Shown here piece by piece: positions 1-16,018 of a DNA stretch of 16,018 nucleotides; the first letter of the stretch is position 1; each line of letters opens with the position of its first letter. The notes beneath the pieces were generated by a model, which was not told where the DNA came from, searched no databases, and saw only the letters and a list, made by a program, of their open reading frames with translations. The DNA lies in assembly GCA_037381445.1 (NCBI GenBank), contig JARRQT010000042.1:1-16018 (forward strand), read 5' to 3'. The translations under genes and the position numbers were made by a program. Source of the stretch: Calditrichia bacterium. GTDB taxonomy: Bacteria > Calditrichota > Calditrichia > RBG-13-44-9.

Positions 1-627
1 ATCCAGTGTAACCGTTGAAGGAGAGAGTGGTTTAAAACTGGTGAATTTCATGAAATCCGGATCATAATTCAAATGGGCGTCAAAAGGCCGGGGAGATTTT
101 AAAGCCAGTTTAAAGACAATTATCTTTCTATATTGCTTAACATCAATATATCCGTGAATATCTGATACGTCAATCGGAGTTGACTTGAGGGTACTGAAAT
201 TCTCTAATTCTTTGAGCCCAATGGTACCATACAATTCAGAGATGTCTATTTTATTTCCCTGAATAAAATCCCCCAGGAAAATTGAGGTCAGCAAAAAGCC
301 GATAACAATGCCAACCACAAACGCATAGGCCAGTTTCGGATTGGGACTTGTAAAAAAACGCCGCAGCCTGGAAAATGAAATTGAAAATTGCTTTTGGGAT
401 GGAATTTTTTTGAAATCAACTGAATTCATGATATGTTTTTTCAGGTTCGGAGAAGGTTCGAATTCGGGAATTTCGGAAAGTAAAATGGAGGCCCTTCTCA
501 GATCCTGGTAAAAGGATTGAGCGTCCGGATTGCTCTGCAAATATTTCCGAAGTCTTTGGCAGTCCTTTTCGGATAACTCGCCATCGATTTCCTGATGCAT
601 TAATTCTATATATCGATCTTCAATCAT
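1..627 (-). CDS. Membrane-anchored anti-sigma factor (RsiW/zf-HC2-like N-terminus); 3' end runs off the window
   Basis: Translated by hand: ATG at 627-625 overlaps the sigma stop by 8 nt and the frame is open for 209 codons to position 1. It starts MIEDRYIELMHQEIDGELSEKDCQRLRKYLQSNPDAQSFYQDL (DGEL anti-sigma motif), then EPSPNLKKHIM, then one hydrophobic segment LAYAFVVGIVIGFLLTSIFLG, then a predicted extracytoplasmic part. Confidence 0.85.
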   Translation of the reverse strand, partial: MIEDRYIELMHQEIDGELSEKDCQRLRKYLQSNPDAQSFYQDLRRASILLSEIPEFEPSPNLKKHIMNSVDFKKIPSQKQFSISFSRLRRFFTSPNPKLAYAFVVGIVIGFLLTSIFLGDFIQGNKIDISELYGTIGLKELENFSTLKSTPIDVSDIHGYIDVKQYRKIIVFKLALKSPRPFDAHLNYDPDFMKFTSFKPLSPSTVTLD

Positions 628-1168
628 GGGTTATTACACCTCGTTGGATTAATATCTCTCTCAGAATTTGTCTTGCAGAATAAAGCCGCGATTTCACCTT
701 TCTCACTGGTATATCAAGTATTTCCGAAATTTCATTATAGGAACAATGGGCAAAATGCCTGAGAATAATAATAATTCTGTAATTGGGTTGAAGCTGCATC
801 AGTGACCGCTGGATATTTTCGCTTAACTCAACCTGCAGATAAGTCTGCTCCGGATTCTGCTCTGAACACTGAATAATGGTATCAATATTTTTCCCATCTT
901 TCTTCTTTTTTAAAAAGTTTAATGATTCGTTCACCGCTATCCGGTAAAGCCAACTAAAAAATTTGTATTTTGCATTGAATGTTTTCAGCTTTTCATAGGC
1001 TTTAATAAATACTGTCTGCGTAATATCTTCAGCTTCGTCGAAATCTTTGCAAAATCGATACACCATATTGTAAATAATCTTCTGATATTTATCGACCAAT
1101 CCTTCAAAGGCCGTTTGGTTTCCCTCCAGACATTGCCTTACTAAAAAATGATCATCATTCTTCATCAT
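620..1168 (-). CDS. ECF-family RNA polymerase sigma-70 factor (SigW/RpoE-like)
   Basis: 182 aa. Region 2: EAEDITQTVFIKAY and FFSWLYRIAVNESLN. Region 4: SYNEISEILDIPVRKVKSRLYSAR. The start may be either of two tandem ATGs (1168 or 1165). Confidence 0.95.
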   Translation of the reverse strand: MMKNDDHFLVRQCLEGNQTAFEGLVDKYQKIIYNMVYRFCKDFDEAEDITQTVFIKAYEKLKTFNAKYKFFSWLYRIAVNESLNFLKKKKDGKNIDTIIQCSEQNPEQTYLQVELSENIQRSLMQLQPNYRIIIILRHFAHCSYNEISEILDIPVRKVKSRLYSARQILREILIQRGVITHD

Positions 1169-1213
1169 AATTACAACTTGTGAGCTAAAATGTTGGTTGT
1201 CTTTTTAATCCAA

Positions 1214-1498
1214 TTATAGAATTTGAAATATCATATCGAAACCGGCATATCTGAACACTTCCCGGATATGCTTATTCAAATTTTTTAAAATTAACTGATT
1301 TCCATTTTCGCTCAACCTTTTTTGCGTTACCAGCAGCACGCTTAATCCGGCACTGGAAATATAATCCAGATCCCGAAAATTGACGGTGCGTGTGGTGTTG
1401 ATTCCATCGAATGCCTCCCTGGCTTTGTCAACTTGAGATGCATCAAACCGCCCTTCCAGCGCGATTTCATTGTCCTCCCCATAACTAATTTCGAACAT
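1214..1498 (-). CDS. STAS-domain anti-sigma factor antagonist (RsbV/SpoIIAA-like)
   Basis: 94 aa. LDYISSAGLSVLL carries the phosphorylatable Ser motif, and the C-terminus has IREVFRYAGF. An AAGGA ribosome-binding site lies upstream and the gene overlaps the upstream gene by 14 nt. Confidence 0.93.
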   Translation of the reverse strand: MFEISYGEDNEIALEGRFDASQVDKAREAFDGINTTRTVNFRDLDYISSAGLSVLLVTQKRLSENGNQLILKNLNKHIREVFRYAGFDMIFQIL

Positions 1499-1904
1499 GA
1501 GTCTTCCTTAAAATTTTAGTCAATGTCAGTTTATTCATATTATTTTTATATTCGCAATTAATATCATCCATATATTTTTTGATCAAATGTATTCCCAGTT
1601 TCCCGGTCGGACGCTTGCTAAGCGGCACAGTTGCGTCATAATCAGCAGCCTGGGTCGGATCGAAGGGCTGCGAATTAAAATCCTTCACGGTCAGCACAAT
1701 CTCGTTTTTCCTTTTGCTCAATCCTATTTCGATATCGCCCATACAACCCGGGCAATATTTTAACATATTTGTAAAAAGTTCTTCCACCACCAGCTCAATT
1801 GCAAATCTGATTTCTTCGTTTAGTCCGTTCCGATGGACGAATGATTGAATGAAGGAGCACATCTGTTCAAGCGAACTGAAATCCCGTTGAAATTTCTTTT
1901 TCAT
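1485..1904 (-). CDS. RsbW/SpoIIAB-like anti-sigma Ser kinase (HATPase_c_2)
   Basis: 139 aa. N-box LVVEELFTNMLKY, a PFDP motif and G2-like RPTGKLGIHLIKKYMD. It lies between the PP2C and STAS genes. Confidence 0.9.
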   Translation of the reverse strand: MKKKFQRDFSSLEQMCSFIQSFVHRNGLNEEIRFAIELVVEELFTNMLKYCPGCMGDIEIGLSKRKNEIVLTVKDFNSQPFDPTQAADYDATVPLSKRPTGKLGIHLIKKYMDDINCEYKNNMNKLTLTKILRKTHVRN

Positions 1905-1941
1905 GATTTTAGAAAAAGCAAATAAATTATTAACAACATTT

Positions 1942-3237
1942 TTATTTGACCTTAACAGCGATCAATGCGATATCGTCCCGGGGAGACTCATCGTGAAGAT
2001 GCAATTTTAATTTTGTCATTAAATGCTGAATAATTCCCCCGGCTGAATCAGCAGCGCAAGTTCTGAATTCCCTTAAGAGCCGTTCCTGTCCGAACATCTC
2101 ATGATTTGAGTTTTCTGCTTCCGTGAAACCATCCGTATAAAGCACCACAGAATCATCTTGCCCGAGTTCAATTCTCCTGATTTCATATGCCGGATTTTTC
2201 AGCCCGTTTAAAGCACACCCGGTTATTTCCAAAGTGCCTGCCGATTTTGAGCTGGAATCAAAGAATAATGCAGGATTATGGCCGGCATTGGACAGTGTTA
2301 ATGTCTTTTTTAAAGGATTAATCACCATGATCAGCATCGTTATGAATATTTCCGGGGGGAGAATCTTATTCAAAATTTGATTTAATTCCTGAAGGACCTG
2401 GTCCACTGAAACAAATTTATAAACGAGTGAATGTAAAATACCCTTAATCATGGTCATGATCATCGCGGCCGATGCGCCATGACCGGCAACATCAGCGAGG
2501 ACAATGCCAATTTCACCATCTCTTAAAGAAAAATAGTCGTAATAATCACCTCCCACTTCTTCAGCAGGACCAAAATAACTTGAAATTTCCAGAAAAGCAG
2601 ACCCGGGATCAATCTTAGGAATCAAATCCTGTTGCATCTTTCTGGCCAGTGCCAATTCATGAGCCAGCCGCTGTTTCTCAATCAATTGCTTCTGCAACTG
2701 CAAATTTTGAATTAATTGCCCCGATTGCGCTGCAATAATGGATAGCAATCTTAAATCTCCCTTTGTAAAAGGCTCTAATGTTTTTTTATTGGTAACTGTC
2801 AATATCCCGATCATTTGTCCCTTAAATTGAATAGGAACGCTTAGAATCGAACGGATCTCTTTTGTCTCCTGATCGTTGGGACTGAAACGCTCATCTGTTG
2901 CCAGATTTTCAACTATAAGCGGTGCTCTATATTTCAGCACCCATCCGGTAAGATGAATGCCAACCTTATAGGTCAATAAACGACTTCGCTGATCTGCCTG
3001 ACGGATCAGGGTTTGGAGCGGATTTTTTTCCTGCAGAGTAATTAATTGTATGGCACCCTGTTCTGCTCTTACGGCTTTGATAGATTTCTCCACGATAATG
3101 TCTAACATTCTTTCTACTTCAAGGGATGAACTTGCTGCCATGGCAAGCTCATTCAGCACCGTGAGCTCTTCCACCGCGGAGCGAAGCCTCGCCACCTCAT
3201 GTTCCAGTTGTTTTAAATCGTTATTTTGAGTTATCAT
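1942..3237 (-). CDS. GAF-domain PP2C-type Ser phosphatase (RsbU/SpoIIE family)
   Basis: N-terminal coiled coil, GAF domain (RSILSVPIQFKGQMIGILTVTNK...FTKGDLRLL), linker ELALARKMQQDLIP, and PP2C motifs VGGDYYD, ADVAGHG, NAGHNP, LYTDGFTEA, RDDIAL. The start is uncertain: ATG at 3237 is preferred over the ORF-track TTG at 3279. Confidence 0.93.
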   Translation of the reverse strand: MITQNNDLKQLEHEVARLRSAVEELTVLNELAMAASSSLEVERMLDIIVEKSIKAVRAEQGAIQLITLQEKNPLQTLIRQADQRSRLLTYKVGIHLTGWVLKYRAPLIVENLATDERFSPNDQETKEIRSILSVPIQFKGQMIGILTVTNKKTLEPFTKGDLRLLSIIAAQSGQLIQNLQLQKQLIEKQRLAHELALARKMQQDLIPKIDPGSAFLEISSYFGPAEEVGGDYYDYFSLRDGEIGIVLADVAGHGASAAMIMTMIKGILHSLVYKFVSVDQVLQELNQILNKILPPEIFITMLIMVINPLKKTLTLSNAGHNPALFFDSSSKSAGTLEITGCALNGLKNPAYEIRRIELGQDDSVVLYTDGFTEAENSNHEMFGQERLLREFRTCAADSAGGIIQHLMTKLKLHLHDESPRDDIALIAVKVK

Positions 3238-3852
3238 AATAGAATATTTGAAAAACGATTCAAATAACAGATAAACCAAAACTGTATAATCTTTTGATTT
3301 AAAAAATATAATGAACTTAAAAAGCGTCTATCACATGCTATATGAGGCTCTCGGAGAACAAATAGAAAAATGACAAAAAAATTCGAAATTGGGCGGAAAG
3401 GGAATTTGGGATAATGGATTGACCATCACAGAGTATCATTTCAGCAGATCGTAAGGAGAATTACGCCAGCAATTTTTTAACTCCTATTTTTTTATAGAAT
3501 AGCCGACTTCCTCAGTGATAATTCTTTTAAATAAATTCCATTAATAAATTAAGCATAATATCTTTTAAATTCAAACAAGATATGGGATATATATCATTTT
3601 CATATTTTGGAGAATATCAGTGATTGAATATGACTTCATTTCCCTGTAAGATAGTTCAACCGACATCCTGGTATATAATAGATATCCGGATTCGGATTTT
3701 CCGATAACATAAAAAATTTAAAAGAGCAGAGCAGAAAGTGAAAAATTGTAATGAAGATGATTCAATTAAGGCAAAAGTGGATTTGAAGGATATAAATTCC
3801 AAAAGTTCTTATCAATATCGCTGCAATATCTGATGCTTGCCCCACAATCACA

Positions 3853-3881
3853 TTGATTTTTAAATCAAAATTTTGTATTAT
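3853..3881 (+). promoter_or_regulatory. Candidate sigma70-type promoter with an overlapping inverted repeat
   Basis: TTGATT (3853-3858), 17-nt spacer, TATTAT (3876-3881). The inverted repeat TTGATTT-tt-AAATCAA spans 3853-3868. The AT-rich context makes a chance match possible. Confidence 0.4.
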
Positions 3882-4070
3882 CTATAGTAAATATTTAATA
3901 ATTCTATTAAATATTTACATGCTCAAAAACATTTTCAATAATCCAGCTCGAATCAAATCAGTATGTGATCTTTCTTCGCCGACAACCGCACTGATGTTGC
4001 AGCATTACGGGTCAATCTAATATAAGATTTATGTTGGCTCCCGATCAGTTTTGAGACAGGTGGTGCTAAT

Positions 4071-4211
4071 ATGAATTCTTTGCCCTGCGTCAACAGAAAG
4101 GTCGCCGATTATCGCCCGCCTTCAATTGGATATTCTTGTTCATTTATCTCACAAATTCTATTACAGCGCTTTATAGTATTTAGTGCAATATTGAGTCTGT
4201 GTTCTATTTAA
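4071..4211 (+). CDS. Candidate small ORF (46 aa) with a hydrophobic C-terminal half
   Basis: AGGTGG at 4058-4063 lies 7 nt before ATG 4071. Translation: MNSLPCVNRKVADYRPPSIGYSCSFISQILLQRFIVFSAILSLCSI*. No homology recognised. Confidence 0.25.
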   Translation: MNSLPCVNRKVADYRPPSIGYSCSFISQILLQRFIVFSAILSLCSI

Positions 4212-4249
4212 ATAAATGATCTTTATATCATCAAGTAGGGGGACTTAAT

Positions 4250-4765
4250 ATGGATAAGACAACTTATCTTTTACGGAGCCTTTTTCTCTGTATTATCCTT
4301 AGTTTATTGTACTCAATATGTATTTTCGCGCAAAACCAGCCCAGTGCCCTGGAAAAACTGGCGCTGGAAGCCGAAATGATTGTAACAGGGAAGGTGACAC
4401 AATTAGAATCCAATTGGAATGAAAAGCAAACGCGAATCTATACTACGATTACAATTAATGCAGATCAATTTCTGAAAGGAGAACAGTCTGATCATACGAT
4501 TACCATCAAGGAACCGGGAGGTGAAGTTGGAGAAACAGGAGAACTATATACACATGTGCCAAAATTCAGCATGAACGAAGAAGTACTGCTATTTGTGAAA
4601 AAAGACAAAAGCAATAATCTGCGTGTTGCGGGGGGAGCAAAAGGAAAATTGTCAATCATAACGGATAAAAACACCGGTTCGAAAACAATCAATGGGCGGC
4701 AGAGCTACAACATCCTATTAAAGAAAATCAGCAAAATACTGGATAAGGAAGAACTGAAAAAATAA
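4250..4765 (+). CDS. Secreted protein with a TIMP/NTR-like OB-fold domain of the type associated with bacterial matrixin-family proteases
   Basis: AGGGGGA ribosome-binding site and an N-terminal signal peptide (probable cleavage after ...SICIFA). Pattern AEMIVTGKVTQLESNW...IYTTITINADQFLKG...ITIKEPGGEVG...PKFSMNEEVLLFV. The fold call comes from motif recognition only. Confidence 0.7.
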   Translation: MDKTTYLLRSLFLCIILSLLYSICIFAQNQPSALEKLALEAEMIVTGKVTQLESNWNEKQTRIYTTITINADQFLKGEQSDHTITIKEPGGEVGETGELYTHVPKFSMNEEVLLFVKKDKSNNLRVAGGAKGKLSIITDKNTGSKTINGRQSYNILLKKISKILDKEELKK

Positions 4766-4825
4766 TGATTTATAAGATACCTGAAATTTATTTGTCCGGA
4801 ATATAATCCAAAAAAGAGGGAGATC

Positions 4826-7800
4826 ATGAAAAATATAAGAAACAAACCCATCCTTTTTTTGAGAATTATTATTCTCCTTTTATTTAGTTTAGTTCTGTTT
4901 ACAGATTTCCTGCCTGCACAGGAACGACCCGAAATCACATTACTTCCCGGTTATTCTGCAGAATATTTTTACCGTAATGTGCCCAGACCTGATGGCATCG
5001 CGGTCCGGACAGATGATACTCTATTGATTGTGAATGAAATTGACCCCACGGGAGTTTTTGTGGCGTCCAGAGGTGATCAATTCAACATTAACGGTCGCTA
5101 TTGCGAGACCGGCCCCCCATTTAACAGTCCGGATGATATATTGCAGTATCATGGAGACAGCGTTTTCGTAGTTGATGGCCAGGCCCAAACTTTATTTCTC
5201 GTTTTCCCGGGCGGTAGTCCCATACCTTTCGTTACATCGGAAGATATTACAATTGAAAATCAGTTTAATCCGTTCGGTATTGCACTGGCTCCATCGTCAT
5301 TTGATGGTGACAGTGTGGATCCTGGTGATCTAATTATCGCGGATATTGCATTCGGCTGGCCAGATGAAAAAGCAATATGGGCCATCAATCCTGTAACAGG
5401 TGATGAAAAAGTTTTGGCGAGAGGAAATATTTTTGAACATGGGCCATATCAGGTAGCCTTTAGTCCGGACGGCATCCTTTATATGATTGAAAGCGATGCA
5501 AGTGGAACTGAAGATACGAGGATTGTCACCATAGATGCAGATGGGACTGTTACCCCATTTCTGACCGGAATTCCGAGTACTGGTAATTTAGCAGTACATC
5601 CGGTTACCGGAGAGGTATTCTTCGGAGTCTATGAATTGGGGGAAATCCGGCGTATTTCACCCAGTCATGGCAATTTATTATATCCGAGCACCTCAGAAGT
5701 ATTTGCTTCAGGATTTGAAGAATTTCAGGATTTCCAATTCAGCCCCGATGGAGAAGTATTATATGTGAGTGCTTTTTTCCCAAGCTCCAATGATATTATT
5801 GCGATAAGGAAAACACACACATTTATGGTCACTACATACAATGATGATGGAGCAGGTTCATTAAGAGCCGTCATTGATAGTGCAAATGCAAAGCCCGGCC
5901 TTGACAGCATACACTTCAACATTCCCGGAACGGGCCCGCATACAATTCAACTATCTTCGCAACTACCGCAGATTACCGATCCCGTCACCATCGATGGCTA
6001 CACACAATCCGGAGCATCCCCGGCCACTTCTACAACGAATGCCGTTCTAATGGTTGAAATAGATGGTCAATACACAGATGTTTGTCTTGATATCACTTCC
6101 GGGGAGAGCACCATCAGGGGATTGACAATTAATCGATGTTCGGCTGCCGGAATATCGCTGTATATAGGAGGCGGCAATATTATCGAGGGCAATTTCCTGG
6201 GCACGAATATCAGCGGAACCGCAGGGCTGGGTAACTATCGGGGTATTCTTATAATTGCGTCATCCGGCAATACAATCGGAGGCACAACGCCCGAATCCCG
6301 CAATATTATTTCCGGAAATAGTTACCGCGGGATAAGCCTTGGGGAGGGGACGGGAAATGTAATAACGGGCAATTATATTGGAACGAATGCCGCCGGCACA
6401 GAGCCTGTACCAAATGGCAACATCGGTTTGCTTATCCTCTCCGCGGATAGCACGGTTGTTGGCGAGGCAGATAGTGGTGCCAGAAATGTCATCTCCGGTA
6501 ATGATGGAAATGGCATAATAATTTCAAATTCCACCAATAGTAGAATTATCGGAAACTTCATTGGCACCGATCCCTCAGGAACAATCCAAATTGCCAATCA
6601 AATCGGTATCACTATCAGCGCTGCTTCTGATAATATAATTGGCGGATCTTCACCAGAGACTCGCAATGTTATCTCAGGAAACAGTGATGATGGAATAAAT
6701 ATTCTTGGGAGCACCAGTGAAAATAATGGGATTACAGGCAACTTCATCGGTGTCGCCGCAGACGGATCCACCGCATTGGGAAATGGGGATAATGGCATTT
6801 ATATTGAATCGCCCAATAACATAATTGGCGGACCAGCGGATTTTATGAATGTCATCTCCGGGAATGCAAGTTACGGTATTGTCATTGCAGGTACGGATGC
6901 AGCAGGCAACCGGATCGCAGGAAATTATATTGGGACAGATGCCTCCGGGACTACCGATTTAGGCAACAGCCAGGGTGGAATCTACATCGGAAATGGCGCA
7001 TCAGACAACATCATTGGCGGAACAACTCCTGAGGCACGTAACATAATTTCCGCAAATGGAGAAAATCCTCCGCCTGTCCAACCGGGACCGGTTCATGGAA
7101 TTGTAATGGATGGAGTCGGTTCTAATGGCAATATCATAAGCGGAAACTACATCGGAACAGATGTAACAGGGGAAGTGGCGCTTGGCAACGGCGGCGATGG
7201 CATTCATGTTAGAAACGGTGCTTCGGACAATACAGTAGAAGGCAATGTCATCTCAGGGAATGAAACGACGGCGATATCAATTTTCGGGGACGGAACCGAG
7301 AATAATTTTGTGTGCAGAAATCTAATTGGATTAGATGCTGCCGGAACAGCGAATATAGGACAGCCTGCAGGCACGGGTGTTTATATTGGAATGTCAGCCA
7401 GCAACAATCATATTGGCGGTGCCAGTCCCGATTCGGGCAATTTTATCACGGGCTCAGGTTGGGCTGGTTTTTATACGGATAGTTCAGGTGCAACAAATAA
7501 TAAAATAATCAGCAATTGCTTTGGAACTGATATAAATAAACAAATTGACCCTACTTATGCGAATAGAATAGGAATTCTCCTCTGCAATGCTTCAGGATAT
7601 GCAATCGGCGGTGCTTCGGAGGGCGAAGGTAACCTTATTGCAAACTGCCTGAATGAGGGAATACTTTTGCAGGATACCAGTTCCTATAATCTGATTGCAG
7701 GCAATGAGATCATTAATAACGGCACCTCCGGTATCAATGTAACAAACGGCACCGGGAATAATATAGCGGCGAACCGCATATCTGCAAACGGGGGACTGGG

Positions 7801-10723
7801 TATAGACCTGGGCGGAGATGGTGTTACGCTCAACGATGAGGTGGACCTCGACAGCGGGCCAAACAACCTGCAAAACTATCCTGTGCTGACTTCTGCTGCC
7901 AGCGATGTGGATCTTATCAGCGTTGAACTGCACAGCACTCCGGGCATCGAATATCGCATCGAATTTTTTGAAAGCGATACCTGCGATACCTCGGGATATG
8001 GTGAAGGACAGACATTTATCGGCAATATTACGGTGGCGACAGATATTTATGGCGACGTAACGTTTAATGCGTACCTGCCGGATGAAATTAAACCCGGTAA
8101 ATTTTATACCGCAACGGCAACCGCCCCGGATAACAATACTTCCGAATTTTCTGCTGCGATAGCATCTGAAATCAAGACAAAATCCTACGGGCCCCATTAT
8201 GTGATCAACCGGACCCACTCCGGTATCCCGTTGCATTGGCCGGATGGGAAGGCGACGTTTGATATAGGTCCCGATGCACAAGCATTTGCAACATCAGTCG
8301 AGGCGGGTTATGCCACATGGAGCGCTTTGCCGGAACTGGAATATATTGCTTCAGGCAATGCGGCATCATCCAACCAGTGGGCCGGTGATCCGGATGGGCT
8401 CAATAATAATGTCTGGATAGCAGATTGGGATACCACCGGATTGGCACCGGACGTGGTAGCAGCCACCCGGGTGCGTTATAACGCCATTACCGGAGAAATG
8501 ACCGATGTGGATATCGGCTACAATGCCCAAGACTTTAATTGGTCCACTTCAGGAGAGGCTGATAAATTAGATGTCCAAAACGTAGCTACCCACGAAATTG
8601 GACATTTTGGGGGCTTAGGAGATATTTATAACGAGGCCGATACTGACTATTGGGTGGAAGGTATGGGAGATGGGAATGCAGAACAAACCATGTATGGTTT
8701 GATAAAAGCGGAAGAAACCAAAAAACGAGATCTGTATCAGTATTCCGGTTCGTCCCCGGAGGGCGATGTTGGCGGAATTGAATATATCTATGCCAATATT
8801 CCCGATGAACGAGTAGATCTAATGCTGGTATTCGACGGATCGATGAATTATGCGGACAATTATCACGCCTTTGAGGCTGCTAAAAAAAGCGCCATTCAGT
8901 TGATTGACAAGATGCGGGAAGGAGACAGGATTGGTATAGTAAAATTGCCGGATACCCTGTTGGCGCCGCTCACGCAAATTGTGGATGAAAACAGTAGAAC
9001 AGATATCAAAGATAAGATATCCGCCATGAATGTGGGCGGACGGGCTGCTATCGGTTCGGGTTTACAAACCGCTCAGAACCAGCTTGTCACGGAAGGCAGT
9101 GCTCAGAATAAGTGGGCCATGATTTTGTTCAGTTCAGGTGAGGAAACCGCAGAACCTTATGCGGAGTCCGTTCTTCCGGACATTATCGGCACCAAGACTG
9201 CAATTTATACCATGGGCTTTGCAAATGGACCAGCTTCGGGACAAAATTTGAACAGTCATATCGCTGATGTTACCCGGGGTGACTATTTCCTTCTGGCGGA
9301 CTCCAGTGAGATTGGGGATGTCGTTAATTTTATCTGGTATCGCCTGCTGGGTATGCAAATTATTTATTTATCCGAAGCCCACTCCACCAGTGACTTGGCT
9401 GGTGTTTCGTCCCCGGGACTATATTGGCAGGGCGGGATGTACTGGCAAGGAGGATTTTACTGGCAGGGCGGCATGTATTGGCAGGGTGGTTTCCTGGAAA
9501 TAGGGCTATACTGGCAGGGCAGCGATTTGGATCTCTCCATTTTACCACCGCCAGCGGATGGTGAAACAGATCGGCTTATTGATTCAACTAATGTGGATGA
9601 TTATCCCAATATCAAGTTTTTTACCGGACCAAATTATGAATACTACCAGATTAAAAATGCCGATCCCGGAACCTGGTCCGGTTGGGTATTCGGTGAAAGT
9701 CTTCCGCAAATCCCCGAGACATACCGAACGTACATCGCTGCCAGGACTGATGTGACCATGGAAGTGAAGATACCTTCTGACCGGTTACCATCGGGCGCCC
9801 ACACCGAAATCGATGTTAAACTATATGAAGGCGGAGAACGCCAGTCCGATTTGCACCTGACCGGTGGCCAGCCTATTTTAGGAGCAATTGTTTCTGCCGA
9901 CATCGTAAATCCTGATGGAGATACTACTTTCACCGAACCATTTTATGAATCGGGTGACGGTTTATATACATTTGCCACCCGGCCATTTCCGGAGTCCGGA
10001 AGTTACAAGATAATAATTAATGCCAGTAAGCCCGAACCTTCCTCTGGCCAGCGAAAACTTATCAGCCGCAGCGTGCATTCATTGTACATTTATGATCTCC
10101 CCTCCTCAGATGCGGTAAATGAGATAAGAAATGTCATTTTCGGTCTCGATAATTCGTATTTCAAGCAACCAGCAAGCAACCGAAAAATTGCTTTTTCAAA
10201 CAAATTAGATGAAGTGTTATTCCTGATTGAGGACGGAAATTATGATGAGGCGATTGACAAATTAGAGAACGATGTCCTTGCAAAAATGGATGCTTTCTAT
10301 GGCGGAAGTCCAGGTAATGACTGGATCATTACCGAACCGGGGCAGCATGCGATATACCCACTTGTTCGTAATTTAATTGTTTCGCTGCAAACTCTGCCAC
10401 CCAAAAAATCTGAAACTCCGGCATTAAGGGGTGAATTGTCACCAAAGCAATTTAAGGTATTGCCCAATTTCCCGAATCCTTTTAATCTGCAAACCACAAT
10501 CCAATACGAATTGCCCCGGGAAAGCCAGGTTACTTTAAAGATTTATAATGTGCTTGGGCAATTGGTCAAAACACTGGTGGATGATTATCAGAAATCCGGT
10601 TATTATACGCTGCGCTGGAATGGTGATGATGAAAGTGGCACCGTAGTTTCAAATGGTGTCTATATCTATCGGTTTAAAGCCGGTAACTACATTAAAACAG
10701 GCAAGATGCTGTTGATGAAATAA
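4826..10723 (+). CDS. Large secreted multidomain zinc metalloprotease (propeller, beta-helix, matrixin-like, vWA, repeats, Ig-like, FlgD-Ig/T9SS-type CTD)
   Basis: 1965 aa with a GAGGGAG ribosome-binding site and signal peptide. Beta-propeller-like repeats at about 4930-5810. CSLREA-like cap NDDGAGSLRAVI from about 5820. Beta-helix at about 6100-7850. HEIGHFGGLGD at 8591-8623 and Met-turn QTMYG near 8690. vWA at about 8810-9350. C-terminus NFPNPFNLQTTIQYEL...GVYIYRF...KMLLMK. Confidence 0.9.
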   Translation: MKNIRNKPILFLRIIILLLFSLVLFTDFLPAQERPEITLLPGYSAEYFYRNVPRPDGIAVRTDDTLLIVNEIDPTGVFVASRGDQFNINGRYCETGPPFNSPDDILQYHGDSVFVVDGQAQTLFLVFPGGSPIPFVTSEDITIENQFNPFGIALAPSSFDGDSVDPGDLIIADIAFGWPDEKAIWAINPVTGDEKVLARGNIFEHGPYQVAFSPDGILYMIESDASGTEDTRIVTIDADGTVTPFLTGIPSTGNLAVHPVTGEVFFGVYELGEIRRISPSHGNLLYPSTSEVFASGFEEFQDFQFSPDGEVLYVSAFFPSSNDIIAIRKTHTFMVTTYNDDGAGSLRAVIDSANAKPGLDSIHFNIPGTGPHTIQLSSQLPQITDPVTIDGYTQSGASPATSTTNAVLMVEIDGQYTDVCLDITSGESTIRGLTINRCSAAGISLYIGGGNIIEGNFLGTNISGTAGLGNYRGILIIASSGNTIGGTTPESRNIISGNSYRGISLGEGTGNVITGNYIGTNAAGTEPVPNGNIGLLILSADSTVVGEADSGARNVISGNDGNGIIISNSTNSRIIGNFIGTDPSGTIQIANQIGITISAASDNIIGGSSPETRNVISGNSDDGINILGSTSENNGITGNFIGVAADGSTALGNGDNGIYIESPNNIIGGPADFMNVISGNASYGIVIAGTDAAGNRIAGNYIGTDASGTTDLGNSQGGIYIGNGASDNIIGGTTPEARNIISANGENPPPVQPGPVHGIVMDGVGSNGNIISGNYIGTDVTGEVALGNGGDGIHVRNGASDNTVEGNVISGNETTAISIFGDGTENNFVCRNLIGLDAAGTANIGQPAGTGVYIGMSASNNHIGGASPDSGNFITGSGWAGFYTDSSGATNNKIISNCFGTDINKQIDPTYANRIGILLCNASGYAIGGASEGEGNLIANCLNEGILLQDTSSYNLIAGNEIINNGTSGINVTNGTGNNIAANRISANGGLGIDLGGDGVTLNDEVDLDSGPNNLQNYPVLTSAASDVDLISVELHSTPGIEYRIEFFESDTCDTSGYGEGQTFIGNITVATDIYGDVTFNAYLPDEIKPGKFYTATATAPDNNTSEFSAAIASEIKTKSYGPHYVINRTHSGIPLHWPDGKATFDIGPDAQAFATSVEAGYATWSALPELEYIASGNAASSNQWAGDPDGLNNNVWIADWDTTGLAPDVVAATRVRYNAITGEMTDVDIGYNAQDFNWSTSGEADKLDVQNVATHEIGHFGGLGDIYNEADTDYWVEGMGDGNAEQTMYGLIKAEETKKRDLYQYSGSSPEGDVGGIEYIYANIPDERVDLMLVFDGSMNYADNYHAFEAAKKSAIQLIDKMREGDRIGIVKLPDTLLAPLTQIVDENSRTDIKDKISAMNVGGRAAIGSGLQTAQNQLVTEGSAQNKWAMILFSSGEETAEPYAESVLPDIIGTKTAIYTMGFANGPASGQNLNSHIADVTRGDYFLLADSSEIGDVVNFIWYRLLGMQIIYLSEAHSTSDLAGVSSPGLYWQGGMYWQGGFYWQGGMYWQGGFLEIGLYWQGSDLDLSILPPPADGETDRLIDSTNVDDYPNIKFFTGPNYEYYQIKNADPGTWSGWVFGESLPQIPETYRTYIAARTDVTMEVKIPSDRLPSGAHTEIDVKLYEGGERQSDLHLTGGQPILGAIVSADIVNPDGDTTFTEPFYESGDGLYTFATRPFPESGSYKIIINASKPEPSSGQRKLISRSVHSLYIYDLPSSDAVNEIRNVIFGLDNSYFKQPASNRKIAFSNKLDEVLFLIEDGNYDEAIDKLENDVLAKMDAFYGGSPGNDWIITEPGQHAIYPLVRNLIVSLQTLPPKKSETPALRGELSPKQFKVLPNFPNPFNLQTTIQYELPRESQVTLKIYNVLGQLVKTLVDDYQKSGYYTLRWNGDDESGTVVSNGVYIYRFKAGNYIKTGKMLLMK
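6170..7540 (+). repeat. Parallel beta-helix protein repeats, about 8 degenerate copies
   Basis: Recurring N-x-IGG...RNVISGN...GI-x-I...GN[FY]IGTD motif: GNFLGTN, GNYIGTN, GNFIGTD, GNFIGVA, GNYIGTD twice, RNLIGLD, SNCFGTD. Confidence 0.85.
9416..9520 (+). repeat. In-frame 18-bp tandem repeat encoding G-[LMF]-Y-W-Q-G (four tandem copies plus one)
   Basis: ggactatattggcagggc / gggatgtactggcaagga / ggattttactggcagggc / ggcatgtattggcagggt / ggtttcctggaaata / gggctatactggcagggc, which reads GLYWQG GMYWQG GFYWQG GMYWQG GFLEI GLYWQG. Confidence 0.95.
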
Positions 10724-10751
10724 TGAAATAAGAAGTTGCAGGTGAAATCCC

Positions 10752-10795
10752 GGGCAGGCCGTCAACTCTGTAGAGTGAAGGCCTGCCTTTACTTA
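10752..10795 (+). terminator. GC-rich stem-loop after the protease gene; possible weak intrinsic terminator or RNA stabiliser
   Basis: GGGCAGGCC (10752-10760) pairs with GGCCTGCCT (10780-10788), with an inner ACTCT-gt-AGAGT. Only a short, interrupted T tract follows. Confidence 0.55.
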
Positions 10796-10820
10796 TCATG
10801 AATGGAAATTTGGTTGCGAT

Positions 10821-13800
10821 ATGATAAATCATCCCGAAAAAATTGCGCATTATCAGATTCTGGAATTATTAGGTGAAGGAGGAATGGGGTCGGTCTTTAA
10901 AGCCATCGATACCCAGCGCAACGAAACTGTCGCAATTAAAATTTTATCACGTCACTCCCTGCAAAGTGAAGAAATCCGTCGCCGTTTCCGGCGGGAAGCC
11001 AGCGCCGGCATGCGTCTGGATCATCCTAATATTGTAAAAATCCTGGAAGTCGGGGAATCGGAAAACGAGCTCTTTATCTGCATGGAATATGTGGCTGGGA
11101 AGACCCTCCGAGAAATCGTACAGGAAAAAACGCCTGATCTGATGAAAACCATCGATATTGGGATTGCTGCTGCAAATGCATTAAAACATGCCCATGATCA
11201 GGGAATTATTCATCGGGATATCAAGAGCGCGAATATTATGCTTGCTCATGATGCATCGGTGAAAATAATGGATTTTGGTTTGGCCCGTATGCAGGATGCT
11301 AGTATGCTGACCAGGGAAGGGGAAATTATCGGAACAATTGCCTATATGTCTCCTCAGCAAGCTGTAGGGGAAGCCATCGATCATCGCAGTGATATATTTT
11401 CGCTGGGCGTAGTGCTTTATGAATTACTTACCGGACAGTTGCCGTTTTCCGGCGATTACGAAATGGCATTAATCTATTCCATTTTGAATGAAGAGCCCAT
11501 TAGCATTCGTGAAGTTAACAAAAGCGTGCCCCAGGCATTAGAGCAAATAATATTTAAAGCACTAAAGAAAGATCCTCAAAAACGATATCAAAGTGCAAAT
11601 GATCTGGCTGCCGATCTTGTAAAAATAAAAGACCATTTGGAAATCAATGAACTAATTGATGAATCCGACCTTGATTTGTTGGCCAAAACAGAGGTTTTGC
11701 GTCCTGAAGAGAGGGCTTTTGATTCAAGATTAATTGGCAGAGGGGAACAGCTTGAAGCATTGAAGTCTATACTCCGCCAGGTGATGCTTGGTGAGGGACA
11801 CTCTGTTTTCATTACGGGAGAGGCCGGCATCGGAAAAACCCGATTAGCCTGGGAACTGGAAAAACATGCCCGGACCTTAAAAGTACGAACAATAAAATGC
11901 AGATGCATGTTTCGTCAAGGCGTCTATCCGTATCAGCCTTTTGTAGAAGCCATTCGAGACTATTTTGACATTAAAGGGGTCAAAAGTAACGAAAAGTTAC
12001 ATGACTTTATATCGAATCAAGCCGAAGGATTATTAACCGCACTCCCTGTTATTCGAAAATTCTTAAATCTCGACCAGGAACAGAAAATCATTGTCGAGAG
12101 CAAAGAACAATACTGGGATGCAATTTATAAATTGATTTTGAATATTGCGCAGGAAAGGCCACTTATTCTGATTATCGATGATCTGCACTGGGCCGATGAA
12201 GATACTTTAAAGTTATTCTTTTATATTGCCCGCAACAGTCGTTCCGCCAGGATCATGATGATAGGCACTTACCGTCCGGAGGATGTGCTGGAAATATTTG
12301 ATGACAAAACACCTACCCTCATTGAAATGCAGCATGAAATGAGTCGGGAAGGATTTCTGTCTCTTATCGAGCTAAAAAGGATCAGTGATTCTGAAGTTCG
12401 TGAGCTGGCGGATTCACTTTTTGAAAATGCGGATTTTGATTACTCATTTTACCTGATATTGAATCGGGAAACGGAGGGAAATCCATTTTTTGTTATCGAA
12501 TTATTAAAAATGTTAAATTCAGAAGGCATTATTCTTAAAAAGGGACAAGAACATGTTTTAAAAGAAAATTTTCAACAATTTCAGATTCCCGGCAAGGTCC
12601 AGGATATTGTGATGAGGCGTGTTGAACGGTTGAATAAGGAGGAACGAGAAATTCTTGAGATTGCAGCGGTGGAGGGAGAAGTTTTTCATTCCGACACCAT
12701 CGCTGCCTGTCTGACACTTAATCGCGTTAAAGTTATGAAATTTCTGCAGGCCCTGGAAAGAGAGCATCATATCATACATCCACATGAAAAAATGTATAGA
12801 TTTGATCATGGCAAAATCAGGGATATCTTATATGATTCGATCACACCCGAACTATGCTCGGAATATCATCTGCTTATTGGGAATTTTCTGGAATCAGAGT
12901 ATGGTGCCGATATTCGAATGATTCCCAACATCGCGCATCATTTTGTAGAAGCGGGAGAAAATAAGAGGGCATTACCGCATTTAATTCGTGCTGGTGAACA
13001 GGCAAGAAGTGTTTTTGCCAATGAACATGCAATTCGGTTTTTTGAAAAGGCAGAGGCCATTTTAAATGATTTAGTGAATGAACTCGAAAATGAGGAAATC
13101 CGCCAAAAAAGAGAGGCAATTTATGAAGGCCTGGGCGATGTGCTTGCCCTTACCGGTAAACATGATCTAGCCAATGCTTATTATCATCAGGTAAATTCCT
13201 TGCTGCAGGCTAATTCTCCCAAACAAGCTGTTCTGCTTTGGAAAATGGGATCAGTCCATATTCATCAAGGCGAGAACGAAAAGACACTCCAATTTCTGAA
13301 TCAAGCCGAAACAATCTGTCAGAAAAGTCTTGAGCGACTCAAGCTGGGAATTCCTCTGGAAGCATTTTCTGATGCGAATATCACCGAACAGGATCTATTC
13401 ACTTTGCTGGGCAAGATAATGACCTCCCGGGCACGAATCTTAAAAATTTCCGGTAAGTATAGGGAAGCGATAGAAGAAATAGAAAAGGGGCTTCAGTTTC
13501 TCTCCGATAAAGGGAATCTTACCGAGAAAAGCCAGGCCTACAATGACTTTGGTAATATTTTATTCGATCAGGGAAATTATGAAAACGCAGCCGAAATGTA
13601 CTCCAAAAGTATGGAAATGCGTGAAAAGATAGCCGATAAAAAGGGGCTCGCCGAGACCCGGAATAATCTGGCATTAATTTTTATTGAAAAGGGGCAATAT
13701 GAAAAAGCCGCAGAACTCCTGGAAGAATCCATCGAGCAAATGAATCAAATCGGATTTCGGGTTGGTATTGCAGGCACTTATAATAATTTGGGAGCAGTTT

Positions 13801-14429
13801 ATCAGGATTTAGGTCGTCTGGAGAACGCCTATAAAGTTCATCAAAAAAGTCTGAAAATTTGTGAAGCAACTCATGACATTCCGGGAGAAATCTTATCCTA
13901 TGCAAATATTGGATCAGTAAATGTCGAATTAGGAAACGGTCAAACGGCGGTAAAAAGTCTGGAAAAAAGCATCGCTTTAATGGATGCGAGAAAAATCATG
14001 GTCCTCAAACCCCAGGCTCTTTATTGGTTAAGCAGGGCTTTTTTATCCTTAGGTAATATTCAGTCCGCTCAGGATACTGCTGAAAAAGCGCATCAGGAAG
14101 CATTGAGATTAAATCAAAGGGTCAGTCAAGGCTTTACCAACAGAATATTGGGTATGATTGGATTGGAAAGGTTGACCCAAATGCTACACAAGACCGATCT
14201 TTCAAATTTCAAAGAGGAAATTCATAAATATTTTTCGGAGAGTTTGGAGATTTTTGAATCCCTAAAGATGGAGCATGAATTCGCCCGGACTTGCCTTGAA
14301 ATCGCTAAATTCTTTAAATGGACCAAAGAAAGTAATCAATATGATAGATATTTTCACATTGCCAAAGAAATATTTGAAAGGCTTGGAGCCACCCATGATC
14401 TCAAAAAAATTGAGGAAATTAATTCATAA
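10821..14429 (+). CDS. Hanks-type Ser/Thr kinase fused to a STAND (AAA_16-like) NTPase and TPR repeats
   Basis: Kinase motifs LGEGGMGSVFKA, VAIKIL, HRDIKSAN, DFGLAR, DIFSLG. STAND motifs LIGR, Walker A GEAGIGKT (11817-11840), Walker B LILIIDDLHWAD, and TEGNPFF (GxP). C-terminal TPRs such as YNNLGAVYQDLG. No transmembrane segment or signal peptide is evident. Confidence 0.95.
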   Translation: MINHPEKIAHYQILELLGEGGMGSVFKAIDTQRNETVAIKILSRHSLQSEEIRRRFRREASAGMRLDHPNIVKILEVGESENELFICMEYVAGKTLREIVQEKTPDLMKTIDIGIAAANALKHAHDQGIIHRDIKSANIMLAHDASVKIMDFGLARMQDASMLTREGEIIGTIAYMSPQQAVGEAIDHRSDIFSLGVVLYELLTGQLPFSGDYEMALIYSILNEEPISIREVNKSVPQALEQIIFKALKKDPQKRYQSANDLAADLVKIKDHLEINELIDESDLDLLAKTEVLRPEERAFDSRLIGRGEQLEALKSILRQVMLGEGHSVFITGEAGIGKTRLAWELEKHARTLKVRTIKCRCMFRQGVYPYQPFVEAIRDYFDIKGVKSNEKLHDFISNQAEGLLTALPVIRKFLNLDQEQKIIVESKEQYWDAIYKLILNIAQERPLILIIDDLHWADEDTLKLFFYIARNSRSARIMMIGTYRPEDVLEIFDDKTPTLIEMQHEMSREGFLSLIELKRISDSEVRELADSLFENADFDYSFYLILNRETEGNPFFVIELLKMLNSEGIILKKGQEHVLKENFQQFQIPGKVQDIVMRRVERLNKEEREILEIAAVEGEVFHSDTIAACLTLNRVKVMKFLQALEREHHIIHPHEKMYRFDHGKIRDILYDSITPELCSEYHLLIGNFLESEYGADIRMIPNIAHHFVEAGENKRALPHLIRAGEQARSVFANEHAIRFFEKAEAILNDLVNELENEEIRQKREAIYEGLGDVLALTGKHDLANAYYHQVNSLLQANSPKQAVLLWKMGSVHIHQGENEKTLQFLNQAETICQKSLERLKLGIPLEAFSDANITEQDLFTLLGKIMTSRARILKISGKYREAIEEIEKGLQFLSDKGNLTEKSQAYNDFGNILFDQGNYENAAEMYSKSMEMREKIADKKGLAETRNNLALIFIEKGQYEKAAELLEESIEQMNQIGFRVGIAGTYNNLGAVYQDLGRLENAYKVHQKSLKICEATHDIPGEILSYANIGSVNVELGNGQTAVKSLEKSIALMDARKIMVLKPQALYWLSRAFLSLGNIQSAQDTAEKAHQEALRLNQRVSQGFTNRILGMIGLERLTQMLHKTDLSNFKEEIHKYFSESLEIFESLKMEHEFARTCLEIAKFFKWTKESNQYDRYFHIAKEIFERLGATHDLKKIEEINS

Positions 14430-14446
14430 AACATATTGGAAATACA

Positions 14447-16018
14447 ATGGAAAAAATTGAACAGTATCGGGCAGTTATGCCGGAGGAAAAGTTTTGGCTC
14501 GATAACGTTTATCAGGGTGACACACTCTCCGAACTAACGTATAAGGTCTTCGCAGTCGGTACCGTTCTCAGTCTGCTGCTCATTTCGTCAAATATCTATA
14601 TGGGACTAAAAACAGGTATTACAATGGGGGGATCGCTTATCGGCGCTTTGCTCGCTTTCGTTATGGTTAAGGCATTCAGGGGCAGTTTTTCTATTCTGGA
14701 GAATAATAATGCGCAGACCATGGCGTCGGCATCAGCCAGTCTTGGAATTATGGTCAGCACGATTCCCGCGCTTATCATGTTGGGTTATGAATTCTCGCGG
14801 TTCGAATTATTTATCTGGATTCTTTTCATCCATATCATGGGCGTATTGTTTACCATTCCTCTTAGGATGCAATTTGTAGTGATCGAAAAATTAACATTTC
14901 CCAGTGGAACAGCTTGTGCAGAAACCATTAGAGCAATGCACGCACACGTGGAAGATGCCGTGAAAAAAGCCAGGGTTCTTGGAATAACCGGTTTAATATC
15001 AGGGATCATTACCTGGTTTAGAGATGGTATTCCGGCAATTATTCCAATGATTTCAGGATTTCCCGGCAAAATATGGGGATATTCATTAGCAAGGTTAACA
15101 CTGGGAGTAAATTGGAGTCCAATGTTATTTGGGGTTGGATTTTTAGTAGGACCAAGAATTGGCACCAGTCTGCTTTTGGGAGCTATAATTGGATGGGGAA
15201 TTTTAGCTCCGTTTCTTGCCAATGCCCACATTATTGAGGGGATTGCCTATCCGCAGGTCCGAAATTGGACCATGTGGTCTGCCATTGCATTGATGGTTAC
15301 ATCTGCTATTCTGTCATTAATACTTAAGGCAGGTACGATTTTTAGAGCTTTCAGATCAATGAAGAGGAGCAAACTCGGTGATCTTAGGAAGATTGATATC
15401 AGTTTTAATATGTGGCTGGTCCTATTCTTGCTCACAGCTTCGATCATCGCTATCGTAATGCAGCTGCAATTCCACATTCCTGTTTGGTTAACAGTTTTGG
15501 CAATAATTTTTGCCTACATGTTTTCAATCGTTGCCGTGAGGACTTATGGTGAAACCGATATCAATCCGGTTGGAGCAATGGGATATGGAACTCAAATTAT
15601 TTATGGAGGACTTGCGCCTGGGAATATGATGACCAATGTAATGGCGGCAGGCATTACCGCATCCGGCGCAAATCAATCTGCAGATATGATGCAGGATTAT
15701 AAAACCGGTTATCTGCTCGGTGCCACACCAAAAAAACAAACCATCGCCCAACTGGCAGGTGTTTTCATCGGTTCTATCGCCGCGGTCCCCATTTTTTATG
15801 CAGTAATTGGTGCCTATGGATTAGCCAGCGACGTGTTGCCAGCACCAAGTGCCGTGACATGGGTAGGTATGGCAGAGTTCCTTTCTTCCGGATTTTCCGC
15901 GCTGCCGTCATACGCAGAATTAGGAATCTTATGCGGTATTCTACTGGGCATCATTTTGACAACGATGGAGAATTCAAAATATGCAAAAATTACACCTTCC
16001 CCTTTTGGGATTGGCATT
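14447..16018 (+). CDS. OPT/YSL-family oligopeptide transporter; 3' end runs off the window
   Basis: Translated by hand: ATG 14447, 17 nt after the kinase stop, open for 524 codons to the window end. Motifs ELTYK...SNIYMGLKTG, ILENNNAQTMASA, IPLRMQFVVIEKLTFPSGTACAE, GETDINP, ADMMQDYKTGYLLGATPKKQ, LPAPSA, plus many hydrophobic helices. Confidence 0.93.
   Translation, partial: MEKIEQYRAVMPEEKFWLDNVYQGDTLSELTYKVFAVGTVLSLLLISSNIYMGLKTGITMGGSLIGALLAFVMVKAFRGSFSILENNNAQTMASASASLGIMVSTIPALIMLGYEFSRFELFIWILFIHIMGVLFTIPLRMQFVVIEKLTFPSGTACAETIRAMHAHVEDAVKKARVLGITGLISGIITWFRDGIPAIIPMISGFPGKIWGYSLARLTLGVNWSPMLFGVGFLVGPRIGTSLLLGAIIGWGILAPFLANAHIIEGIAYPQVRNWTMWSAIALMVTSAILSLILKAGTIFRAFRSMKRSKLGDLRKIDISFNMWLVLFLLTASIIAIVMQLQFHIPVWLTVLAIIFAYMFSIVAVRTYGETDINPVGAMGYGTQIIYGGLAPGNMMTNVMAAGITASGANQSADMMQDYKTGYLLGATPKKQTIAQLAGVFIGSIAAVPIFYAVIGAYGLASDVLPAPSAVTWVGMAEFLSSGFSALPSYAELGILCGILLGIILTTMENSKYAKITPSPFGIGI

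Follow-up and report, generated by a model that had tools for sequence, protein, structure and literature searches.

The window analysed here (bases 1-16018 of the 17137-base contig JARRQT010000042.1, from a 5.1-Mb, 92% complete genome of a Calditrichia bacterium) encodes a secreted zinc metalloprotease that contains five copies of a short peptide, followed on the same strand by a soluble Hanks kinase-STAND-TPR protein and a transporter of the OPT family. These genes belong to a conserved multi-gene system that is apparently undescribed and is broader than was seen in the original prediction, a first reading of this DNA made from its letters alone. We favour, with some reserve, the explanation that it is a peptide-signal system that processes itself and whose receptors are interchangeable. 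All the genes named in that prediction were present in the arrangement described, as judged by open reading frame (ORF) calls, Pfam and NCBIfam, including the co-directional block with the five-copy protease, the kinase protein and the OPT gene 17 nt downstream. This block faces away from the genes for PP2C, RsbW, STAS, ECF sigma and anti-sigma proteins, the last being cut by the contig start (Table 1).

The repeated peptide occupies residues 1531-1565 of the protease, as four tandem hexapeptides and a fifth, terminal copy. None of 2000 shuffles of the protein yielded even one copy of the hexapeptide, and among the 12311 ORFs of the genome an array of W-x-G triplets was present in one, that of the protease alone. 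All four tandem copies differ in DNA. In an AlphaFold2 model, the pLDDT fell below 50 over residues 1530-1551, the free part being predicted to comprise no more than copies 1-3 and the beginning of copy 4, and the fifth copy formed a strand (E235-242 of the model). This fifth copy takes the position of a strand, W.GSDLDL, that is common in unrelated vWA-Ig proteins. As that position is an ordinary strand without an array in those proteins, a structural strand is the probable origin of the motif. The same arrangement was predicted by AlphaFold2 for a relative with nine copies, in a model that included the protease domain: the free copies were disordered and the terminal copy was a strand. On this predicted disorder, a β-solenoid was rejected for the nine-copy array.

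A scan of GTDB returned 193 relatives of the protease, and the best 80 loci, from Ignavibacteria, Bacteroidota, Chlorobi and Calditrichota, were kept. At least two units of the form [GA]-Φ-x-[WY]-Q-G, where Φ is a hydrophobic residue, were present in 76 of 81 loci, the window included; of the other five, four are truncated where the contig stops and the ORF of one is split. Copy number in the relatives ranged from 2 to 12. The simplest forms have two copies 17-18 residues apart and the commonest array has nine tandem copies plus one terminal copy, a large clade keeping exactly nine in tandem (31/76). One protein with 12 copies, mostly at 8-residue spacing (P0010, a kelch-repeat protein of 3438 residues), is from Gemmatimonadota, and the protease family therefore extends past the groups sampled by the loci. 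Variable spacers after WQG, giving units of about 6-10 residues, were found in P0010, P0019, P0024, P0039 and P0043. In P0036, the slot of the array holds about ten heptapeptides of the GFVSGQP type without Trp, with an intact zinc site and an unmatched terminal strand; this array is possibly a different signal class.

The peptide is conserved at the protein level and not at the DNA level. Comparison of the copies in 67 arrays gave 3648 synonymous and 420 non-synonymous codon differences, and 405 of the 459 copies were distinct in DNA as against 112 in protein. In the seven two-copy forms, there were 21 synonymous differences and no non-synonymous ones. Synonymous divergence thus ruled out DNA slippage or gene conversion behind the identical copies. 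The last tandem copy matched the terminal copy (Φ-x-W-Q) in 46 of 70 loci, in 17 versions, compared to a mean of 5.8 and a maximum of 14 in shuffles. With a tree-aware null, residue x was common to the last tandem and terminal copies in 47 of 64 loci, compared to a maximum of 29 in 1000 simulations. A core that is kept, with variable spacers, a variable copy number and predicted disorder, suggests a multi-copy peptide precursor.

The genes that accompany the protease were then compared among the loci. Twenty of the 80 end within 1.5 kb of the protease, leaving 60 that are informative; of these, 55 have a membrane sensor directly downstream, four have the kinase-STAND-TPR and OPT genes, one has neither and none has both. 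The sensor is a single-pass membrane β-propeller-PP2C protein of about 1050 residues, with Reg_prop/Y_Y_Y, transmembrane (TM) and SpoIIE parts. Where the sensor loci had room (44), their own RsbW and STAS were present in 36 and a second PP2C in 37. On a tree of protease cores from which the repeat region was excluded, the kinase-OPT loci require four changes and a single clade was rejected (approximately unbiased test, p 3e-70); the tree was a quick one (LG+G4), in which L031 and L190 were flagged for long branches. In these loci, the kinase-OPT pair and the membrane sensor are mutually exclusive, and the swap between them recurs on the protease tree. The proteases of L027 and L028, for instance, are sisters, with GLRWQG and GIRWQG, and have different receptors, while one genome (G043) holds both versions, GIKWQG with the kinase in L040 and GVAWKG with the sensor in L201. 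In L040, the kinase and OPT genes face the protease convergently.

The linked sensors of sufficient length, 49 in number, group in one clade (SH-aLRT 100). Only one of 15 other sensors fell in this clade, that of G043 beside a second protease with GVAWKG copies, and none of the seven paralogues that the window's genome has in the sensor tree did so. Replacement of the kinase and OPT by a sensor-phosphatase, never with both present, would be expected of receptors that sense a diffusible product made by the protease.

The kinase protein matched Pkinase, AAA_16 and TPR_12 of Pfam (E 3e-36) and has no TM segment. Its kinase and STAND motifs are intact (VAIK, HRDIKSAN, DFG, GEAGIGKT and IIDDLHWAD), and Asn908, Asn949 and Asn1029 of the TPR region are invariant among the orthologues, which form a tight family of 35 clusters at 42-100% identity followed by a gap in score. 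The family has YMSPQQ at a position (11343-11360 of the window) where Hanks kinases usually have SPE, the Gln being the family consensus. The best NCBIfam match, TIGR03903 (TOMM kinase/cyclase; E 4e-103), scored 346 bits, below its cut-off of 705.75. The transporter is a multi-TM protein that matched Pfam OPT (E 2e-81) and TIGR00728, the latter above its cut-off. Any ligand carried by an OPT has to be small.

Lack of conservation of the protease-kinase-OPT association had been named beforehand as grounds for abandoning the proposal, and the association was found to be conserved in two phyla. In the class of G041, 5 of 401 genomes had a kinase orthologue (two matches of greater distance being set aside), as did 2 of 86 genomes of the window's own phylum, and G042; a class search around G042 drew mostly the same genomes as that around G041 and is not independent of it. 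The OPT gene adjoins the kinase gene in all eight orthologues found, and in the 401 genomes an OPT orthologue was present in exactly the same five as the kinase, always adjacent. The protease and a small gene upstream of it, not named in the original prediction, accompany all six kinase orthologues whose contig reaches far enough. In five of six informative loci, the kinase adjoins the protease and, in the sixth, it is convergent with the OPT gene between them. In G045, the protease and kinase lie on separate short contigs and the link is indirect, via near-identical database proteins whose contigs have one and the same length, 14095.

Metagenome matches to generic kinase patterns comprised, among those listed, one close locus (L106) and 78 distant ones. 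L106 has the same identities as L026 and is not independent of it; L026, the closest orthologous locus to the window, consists of the same DNA as that of G008, whose genome belongs to the window's family. Among the matches listed, no protease core and no OPT gene was found in the 78 distant STAND-TPR loci (39 of the 79 loci being at least 10 kb long). Distant kinase-STAND-TPR genes, 34% identical in the AAA part, were also seen in L193 (G385) and L194 (G324), within clusters of kinases with GAF-PP2C and STAS genes. Such clusters are a possible source of the kinase version. An ORF in L194 resembles by eye an ABM-domain gene beside the system in L028 (L028:7102-7860).

The protease itself is composed, in order, of a signal peptide, a propeller-like region, a β-helix, a metzincin domain, a vWA domain, the array, Ig-like domains and a T9SS/FlgD tail. 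The signal peptide region was assigned from hydropathy only, as an N-terminal hydrophobic segment, and the label propeller-like comes from reading the sequence by eye, with no family match. The C-terminal domain of type A of the type IX secretion system (T9SS; TIGR04183) scored 35.5 bits against a cut-off of 23, and the genome encodes SprA and PorU, both above cut-off; with this tail and these proteins, export across the outer membrane is likely. A zinc motif HExxHxxGxxD was found in 67 of 67 protease cores, with a Met-turn Met that is invariant or nearly so among the relatives. The third zinc ligand is Asp, in contrast to the His of matrix metalloproteinases (MMPs).

Pfam Peptidase_M10 matched 44 of 67 relatives at E<=0.01 (best 9e-8) and gave no match to the full-length protein of the window. 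A profile gave weak matches to MMP-8 and MMP-1 structures (E 0.004-0.009); a PDB sequence search with the protease domain by itself gave none. Fold searches were dominated by vWA matches, the best with Z 19.5 and a root-mean-square deviation of 2.4 over 176 aligned residues (Foldseek, VIA-align), and barely covered the protease and Ig folds. In the vWA domains of the family, DxSxS of the metal ion-dependent adhesion site (MIDAS) is mostly replaced by DG[ST]xN. The N-terminal domains vary across relatives and include β-helix, CBM_4_9, HYR, kelch, LamG and FnIII types.

The small gene, for a protein of 171 residues, was upstream of the protease in 64 of the 66 loci with at least 900 nt of upstream sequence. 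Its product has an N-terminal hydrophobic segment and no Pfam match. The nearest named Atlas clusters were TIMP/NtA/NTR (0.81-0.89), below the 0.9 bar and to be taken as a lead only, and Atlas TM values of 0.84-0.89 over about 130-139 residues were obtained to matrixin-containing proteins of Acidobacteriota and Thermodesulfobacteriota. The Cys-x-Cys at the N-terminus of TIMPs chelates the zinc of the protease; no such motif was present in 64 homologues of the small protein, only two of which have any Cys in the last 120 residues. This protein is likely to be a split pro-domain, an inhibitor or a chaperone of the protease.

The mechanism that we propose would begin with export of the protease, its TIMP-like partner holding it off or helping it to fold. 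On activation, the protease would cut its own linker at the bonds between Gly and a hydrophobic residue. Such cuts are suggested by the [GA]-Φ junction, which is kept in every unit even with varying linkers, together with the preference of MMP-type enzymes for a hydrophobic residue at P1'. The predicted products are LYWQGG, MYWQGG and FYWQGG (722.34, 740.30 and 756.32 Da), which would then cross the outer membrane; LYWQGG is equal in mass to GLYWQG, the other register. In most species, the periplasmic propeller of the sensor would bind the peptide and set the PP2C/RsbW/STAS switch. In the version of the window, import of the peptide by the OPT would be followed by its binding to the TPR region and by release of the kinase by the STAND domain; the output would be Ser/Thr phosphorylation of a partner-switch/sigma module, here possibly that encoded by the divergent cassette. 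Release may track cell density, or a trigger acting on the variable N-terminal domains. The fullest form of this proposal is held tentatively, at a little less than even confidence: an undescribed and widespread pheromone system of Ignavibacteria, Calditrichota and relatives, in which one T9SS metalloprotease would be both maturase and multi-copy pro-pheromone, derived from its own Ig strand, with a TIMP-like gate and either a periplasmic phosphatase or an OPT-fed STAND-TPR kinase to read the signal.

Several observations weigh against a peptide signal. G056 keeps the small gene, protease (L190:3562-6189), kinase and OPT and has no array (VNWDWE...GLWFGS); its protease, of 875 residues, is also without the β-helix, and this array-less form is represented by a cluster of five sequences (the P0034 cluster). 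The original prediction had been staked on the presence of a repeat-bearing secreted protein in homologous loci, and this held for the relatives and failed in the kinase/OPT locus of G056. The co-variation between peptide and receptor that it had proposed to look for was not found in any column of the sensors (n=49; p 0.94, 0.12 and 0.89), in an assay of low power that covered the sensor only, and no column of the protease co-varied with the peptide (n=66, p 0.12-0.88), again with low power, the tree being allowed for in both. Within single arrays, more than one residue occurs at the x position, and specificity is therefore loose at best. The terminal copy, and probably both copies in the two-copy forms, lie at β-strand positions, from which release would need local unfolding. 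In G098 (a 2.9-Mb genome with the contig cut inside the kinase), the kinase and OPT were present and no protease was found. No outer-membrane transporter was found among the conserved neighbours. Finally, the loci are related to each other, having been taken as the best 80 among 193 matches; the counts are therefore not independent events, and those based on trees are safer.

The absence of the array from G056 and the lack of peptide-receptor co-variation are also what would favour a foraging circuit, in which an outside protein would be digested by the protease and its fragments sensed by the receptors, the array being an activation or release linker and not a ligand. Such a circuit would resemble the β-propeller glycan sensors of Bacteroidetes or the A-signal of Myxococcus, and it fits the widely varying N-terminal domains, as for substrate-targeting modules, and the Reg_prop/Y_Y_Y type of the sensor. 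However, it leaves unexplained up to 12 copies that are identical in protein, diverged in codons, variably spaced and expanded more than once. Neither peptidases nor TonB-dependent transporters were found among the conserved neighbours, and dedicated clades of sensor and OPT track one protease family. We consider foraging unlikely.

An alarm against foreign proteases was regarded as improbable. Here the array would be a bait for the proteases of predators or competitors and the freed peptide would be read as danger, with the protease of the cell itself acting as amplifier or effector. The array is predicted to be a disordered, exposed linker rich in Gly and aromatic residues, the receptor is a STAND protein, of a class that often serves threat sensing, and the outputs are stress-type partner switches, all of which would suit such a role. 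A bait for many proteases should diversify, whereas the copies are homogenised within each protein, and the invariant zinc site also argues against it.

No less improbable is a structural role, in which the free copies would either exchange strands into the Ig groove that the terminal copy occupies or form a stacked cross-β polymer, joining proteases at the surface, while the receptors sense some other small molecule. The terminal copy is indeed a structural strand that co-varies with the free copies, and the clade with exactly nine tandem copies also speaks for such a role. However, the array of P0036 is unlike its terminal strand, spacer lengths vary, neither model contained an ordered solenoid, and the receptor swap would be left unexplained.

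That common signalling genes lie together here by chance, in a genome rich in such genes (134 proteins with T9SS tails, 20 Hanks kinases and 28 PP2C matches), is very improbable, being contradicted already for the protease, kinase and OPT, with one of two receptor sets in 59 of 60 informative loci and reciprocal searches that return the protease. Only for the divergent ECF cassette is such a chance or loose association plausible.

This cassette, of genes for PP2C, RsbW, STAS, ECF sigma and anti-sigma proteins, had been taken as part of the locus by the original prediction, which in this respect did not hold. Linkage to the protease was found only in the window and in three of the 80 loci (L056, L057 and L060, the last without RsbW), and in G008, with the closest orthologue, the cassette lies on another contig. 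The 94-residue STAS protein was present in 30 of the 401 genomes; the 29 further cases had an ECF gene in 29 and RsbW in 25, and a Ser/Thr kinase was found in the fetched flank of six of these further cassettes (L235-L264). None of the 29 had a protease in the fetched flanks, which reached up to 20 kb, several being shorter, a result that also weighs against the peptide-signal explanation. Its mostly unlinked occurrence ruled out the ECF cassette as an obligatory part; with linkage in four loci only, its role as an output is plausible but optional. A GAF-PP2C gene was also upstream in L060 and L028, at 34% identity, no closer than a paralogue in the window's own genome. The cassette joins partner switching with an ECF sigma factor, and the anti-sigma homologue at L056:20395-21648 is extended by MgtE_N domains.

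The proposed system was compared to known ones, beginning with the RRNPP(A) family (Rap-Phr, PlcR-PapR, NprR and AimR-AimP). In both, the gene of a precursor, here one that is predicted to be secreted, adjoins that of a cytoplasmic TPR receptor, a candidate one here, and the proposed steps of maturation outside the cell, re-import and TPR binding are alike. RRNPP criteria are a propeptide of 10-100 residues, Sec secretion, a receptor of 250-500 residues with TPRs, and adjacent genes (PMC10075063). In contrast, the candidate precursor here, among ORFs above 70-80 residues, is a T9SS protease of 1965 residues and the candidate receptor a kinase-STAND-TPR protein of 1202. The importer is an OPT, the host is diderm and there is an alternative membrane receptor. 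The locus departs outright from two of the five criteria, those on the sizes of propeptide and receptor, and is therefore not an RRNPP member. Tandem copies of a pheromone do occur in Phr propeptides (PMC11343458). Of the RRNPP-like logic proposed originally, the conserved linkage and the repeat-bearing relatives stood, and the fixed cassette, the expected co-variation, as judged on the sensor, and the presence of repeats in every locus did not.

By analogy, the system may work like RRNPP in its kinase version and like agr/Com in its sensor version. In agr/Com, a peptide is signalled via a membrane histidine kinase with a response regulator. The commoner sensor version would likewise read the peptide outside the cytoplasm by a single-pass membrane sensor, whereas the parts here are a Reg_prop/Y_Y_Y-TM-SpoIIE phosphatase with RsbW and STAS. 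The hybrid two-component sensors of Bacteroidetes have the same periplasmic Reg_prop/Y_Y_Y set and a PPWW-TM segment; they differ from the sensors here, which have a PP2C output, are linked to a protease and not to glycan genes, and would have a peptide as ligand.

CLCA proteins share the order of zincin, vWA and β-rich domains and gave the best Atlas feature match (0.85, a lead only). We know of no peptide array in CLCAs. PF08434 was found in none of the 67 cores nor in the window protein (E<=0.01), and in 44 of those cores the domain scores as a matrixin (M10). CLCA zincin-vWA proteases are reported to self-cleave, and bacterial CLCAs to be without a conserved neighbourhood (PMC3650047). The A-signal of Myxococcus is also made by proteases in a diderm; this cell-density signal comes from extracellular proteases and is, unlike the one proposed here, a mixture (PMC4320627). 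TOMM kinase/cyclase (TIGR03903) and FxSxx-COOH TPR proteins likewise combine kinase, AAA or TPR parts with peptide-precursor genes. The scores here are far below the cut-offs of these families (346 vs 706 bits and 58 vs 300, respectively), and no enzymes that modify ribosomally synthesised and post-translationally modified peptides were found among the conserved neighbours.

Table 1. Features of the 16018-base window.
Feature	Position	Strand	Remarks
Membrane anti-sigma	1-627	minus	zf-HC2 weak, one TM; truncated at contig start
ECF sigma factor	620-1168	minus	Family searches
STAS protein, 94 aa	1214-1498	minus	Pfam
RsbW-like anti-sigma kinase	1485-1904	minus	Pfam
GAF-SpoIIE (PP2C) phosphatase	1942-3279	minus	Pfam; possible output
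Secreted TIMP/NTR-like protein, 171 aa	4250-4765	plus	Unnamed in the original prediction
Protease and candidate signal precursor, 1965 aa	4826-10723	plus	T9SS tail TIGR04183
Matrixin-like zinc protease domain	8171-8800	plus	HEIGHFGGLGD 8591-8623; Met-turn TMYG near 8681-8701
vWA domain, degenerate MIDAS	8801-9370	plus	Foldseek and VIA-align matches
Four tandem hexapeptides	9416-9487	plus	GLYWQG 9416-9433, GMYWQG 9434-9451, GFYWQG 9452-9469, GMYWQG 9470-9487; candidate signal cassette
Fifth copy, GLYWQG	9503-9520	plus	β-strand of post-vWA Ig-like domain
Hanks kinase-STAND(AAA_16)-TPR protein, 1202 aa	10821-14429	plus	Candidate cytoplasmic receptor
OPT-family transporter	14447-16018	plus	Candidate importer; ends at 16222 on contig, 591 aa on contig

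A gap of 970 nt separates the divergent minus-strand cassette from the plus-strand block. Within it, the 400 nt 5' of the small gene (3853-4249) share 66% identity with the orthologous stretch of G008 in spite of different flanking genes, and are probably a regulatory region. A search of Rfam with 3200-4900 gave no match, and a promoter scan was at chance level (46 vs 42). The protease and kinase genes are 97 nt apart, with the first 68 nt of the gap 75% identical in G008. An inverted repeat, GGCAGGCC...GGCCTGCC, lies in this gap at 10753-10787, followed by TTTACTT, and may be a terminator or processing site; with such a hairpin between the protease and kinase genes, a single transcript is not assured. 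Just beyond the window, a contig-cut minus-strand ORF at 16569-17135 converges on the OPT gene and may encode a DUF1214-type protein.

The original prediction knew of no described system with this make-up, and none of the titles and abstracts listed by full-text searches, mostly outside subscription papers, describes it. Should the ligand prove to be something other than the peptide, the conserved four-part arrangement of TIMP-like protein, protease, swappable receptor and partner switch would still be one for which those searches gave no description. Most known cases of genetically encoded peptide signalling come from Gram-positive bacteria, and this family of loci predicts a peptide signal in diderms, with two unrelated receptors. 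The named peptides and their masses make testable the cargo of bacterial OPTs, the activation of kinase-STAND-TPR proteins outside anti-phage defence and the reading of peptides by Reg_prop/Y_Y_Y sensors. If the proposal is true, it would give a defined peptide ligand to a bacterial STAND receptor, to a Reg_prop/Y_Y_Y sensor and to a bacterial OPT, and the system would mirror the split between agr and RRNPP in Gram-positive bacteria using entirely different parts.

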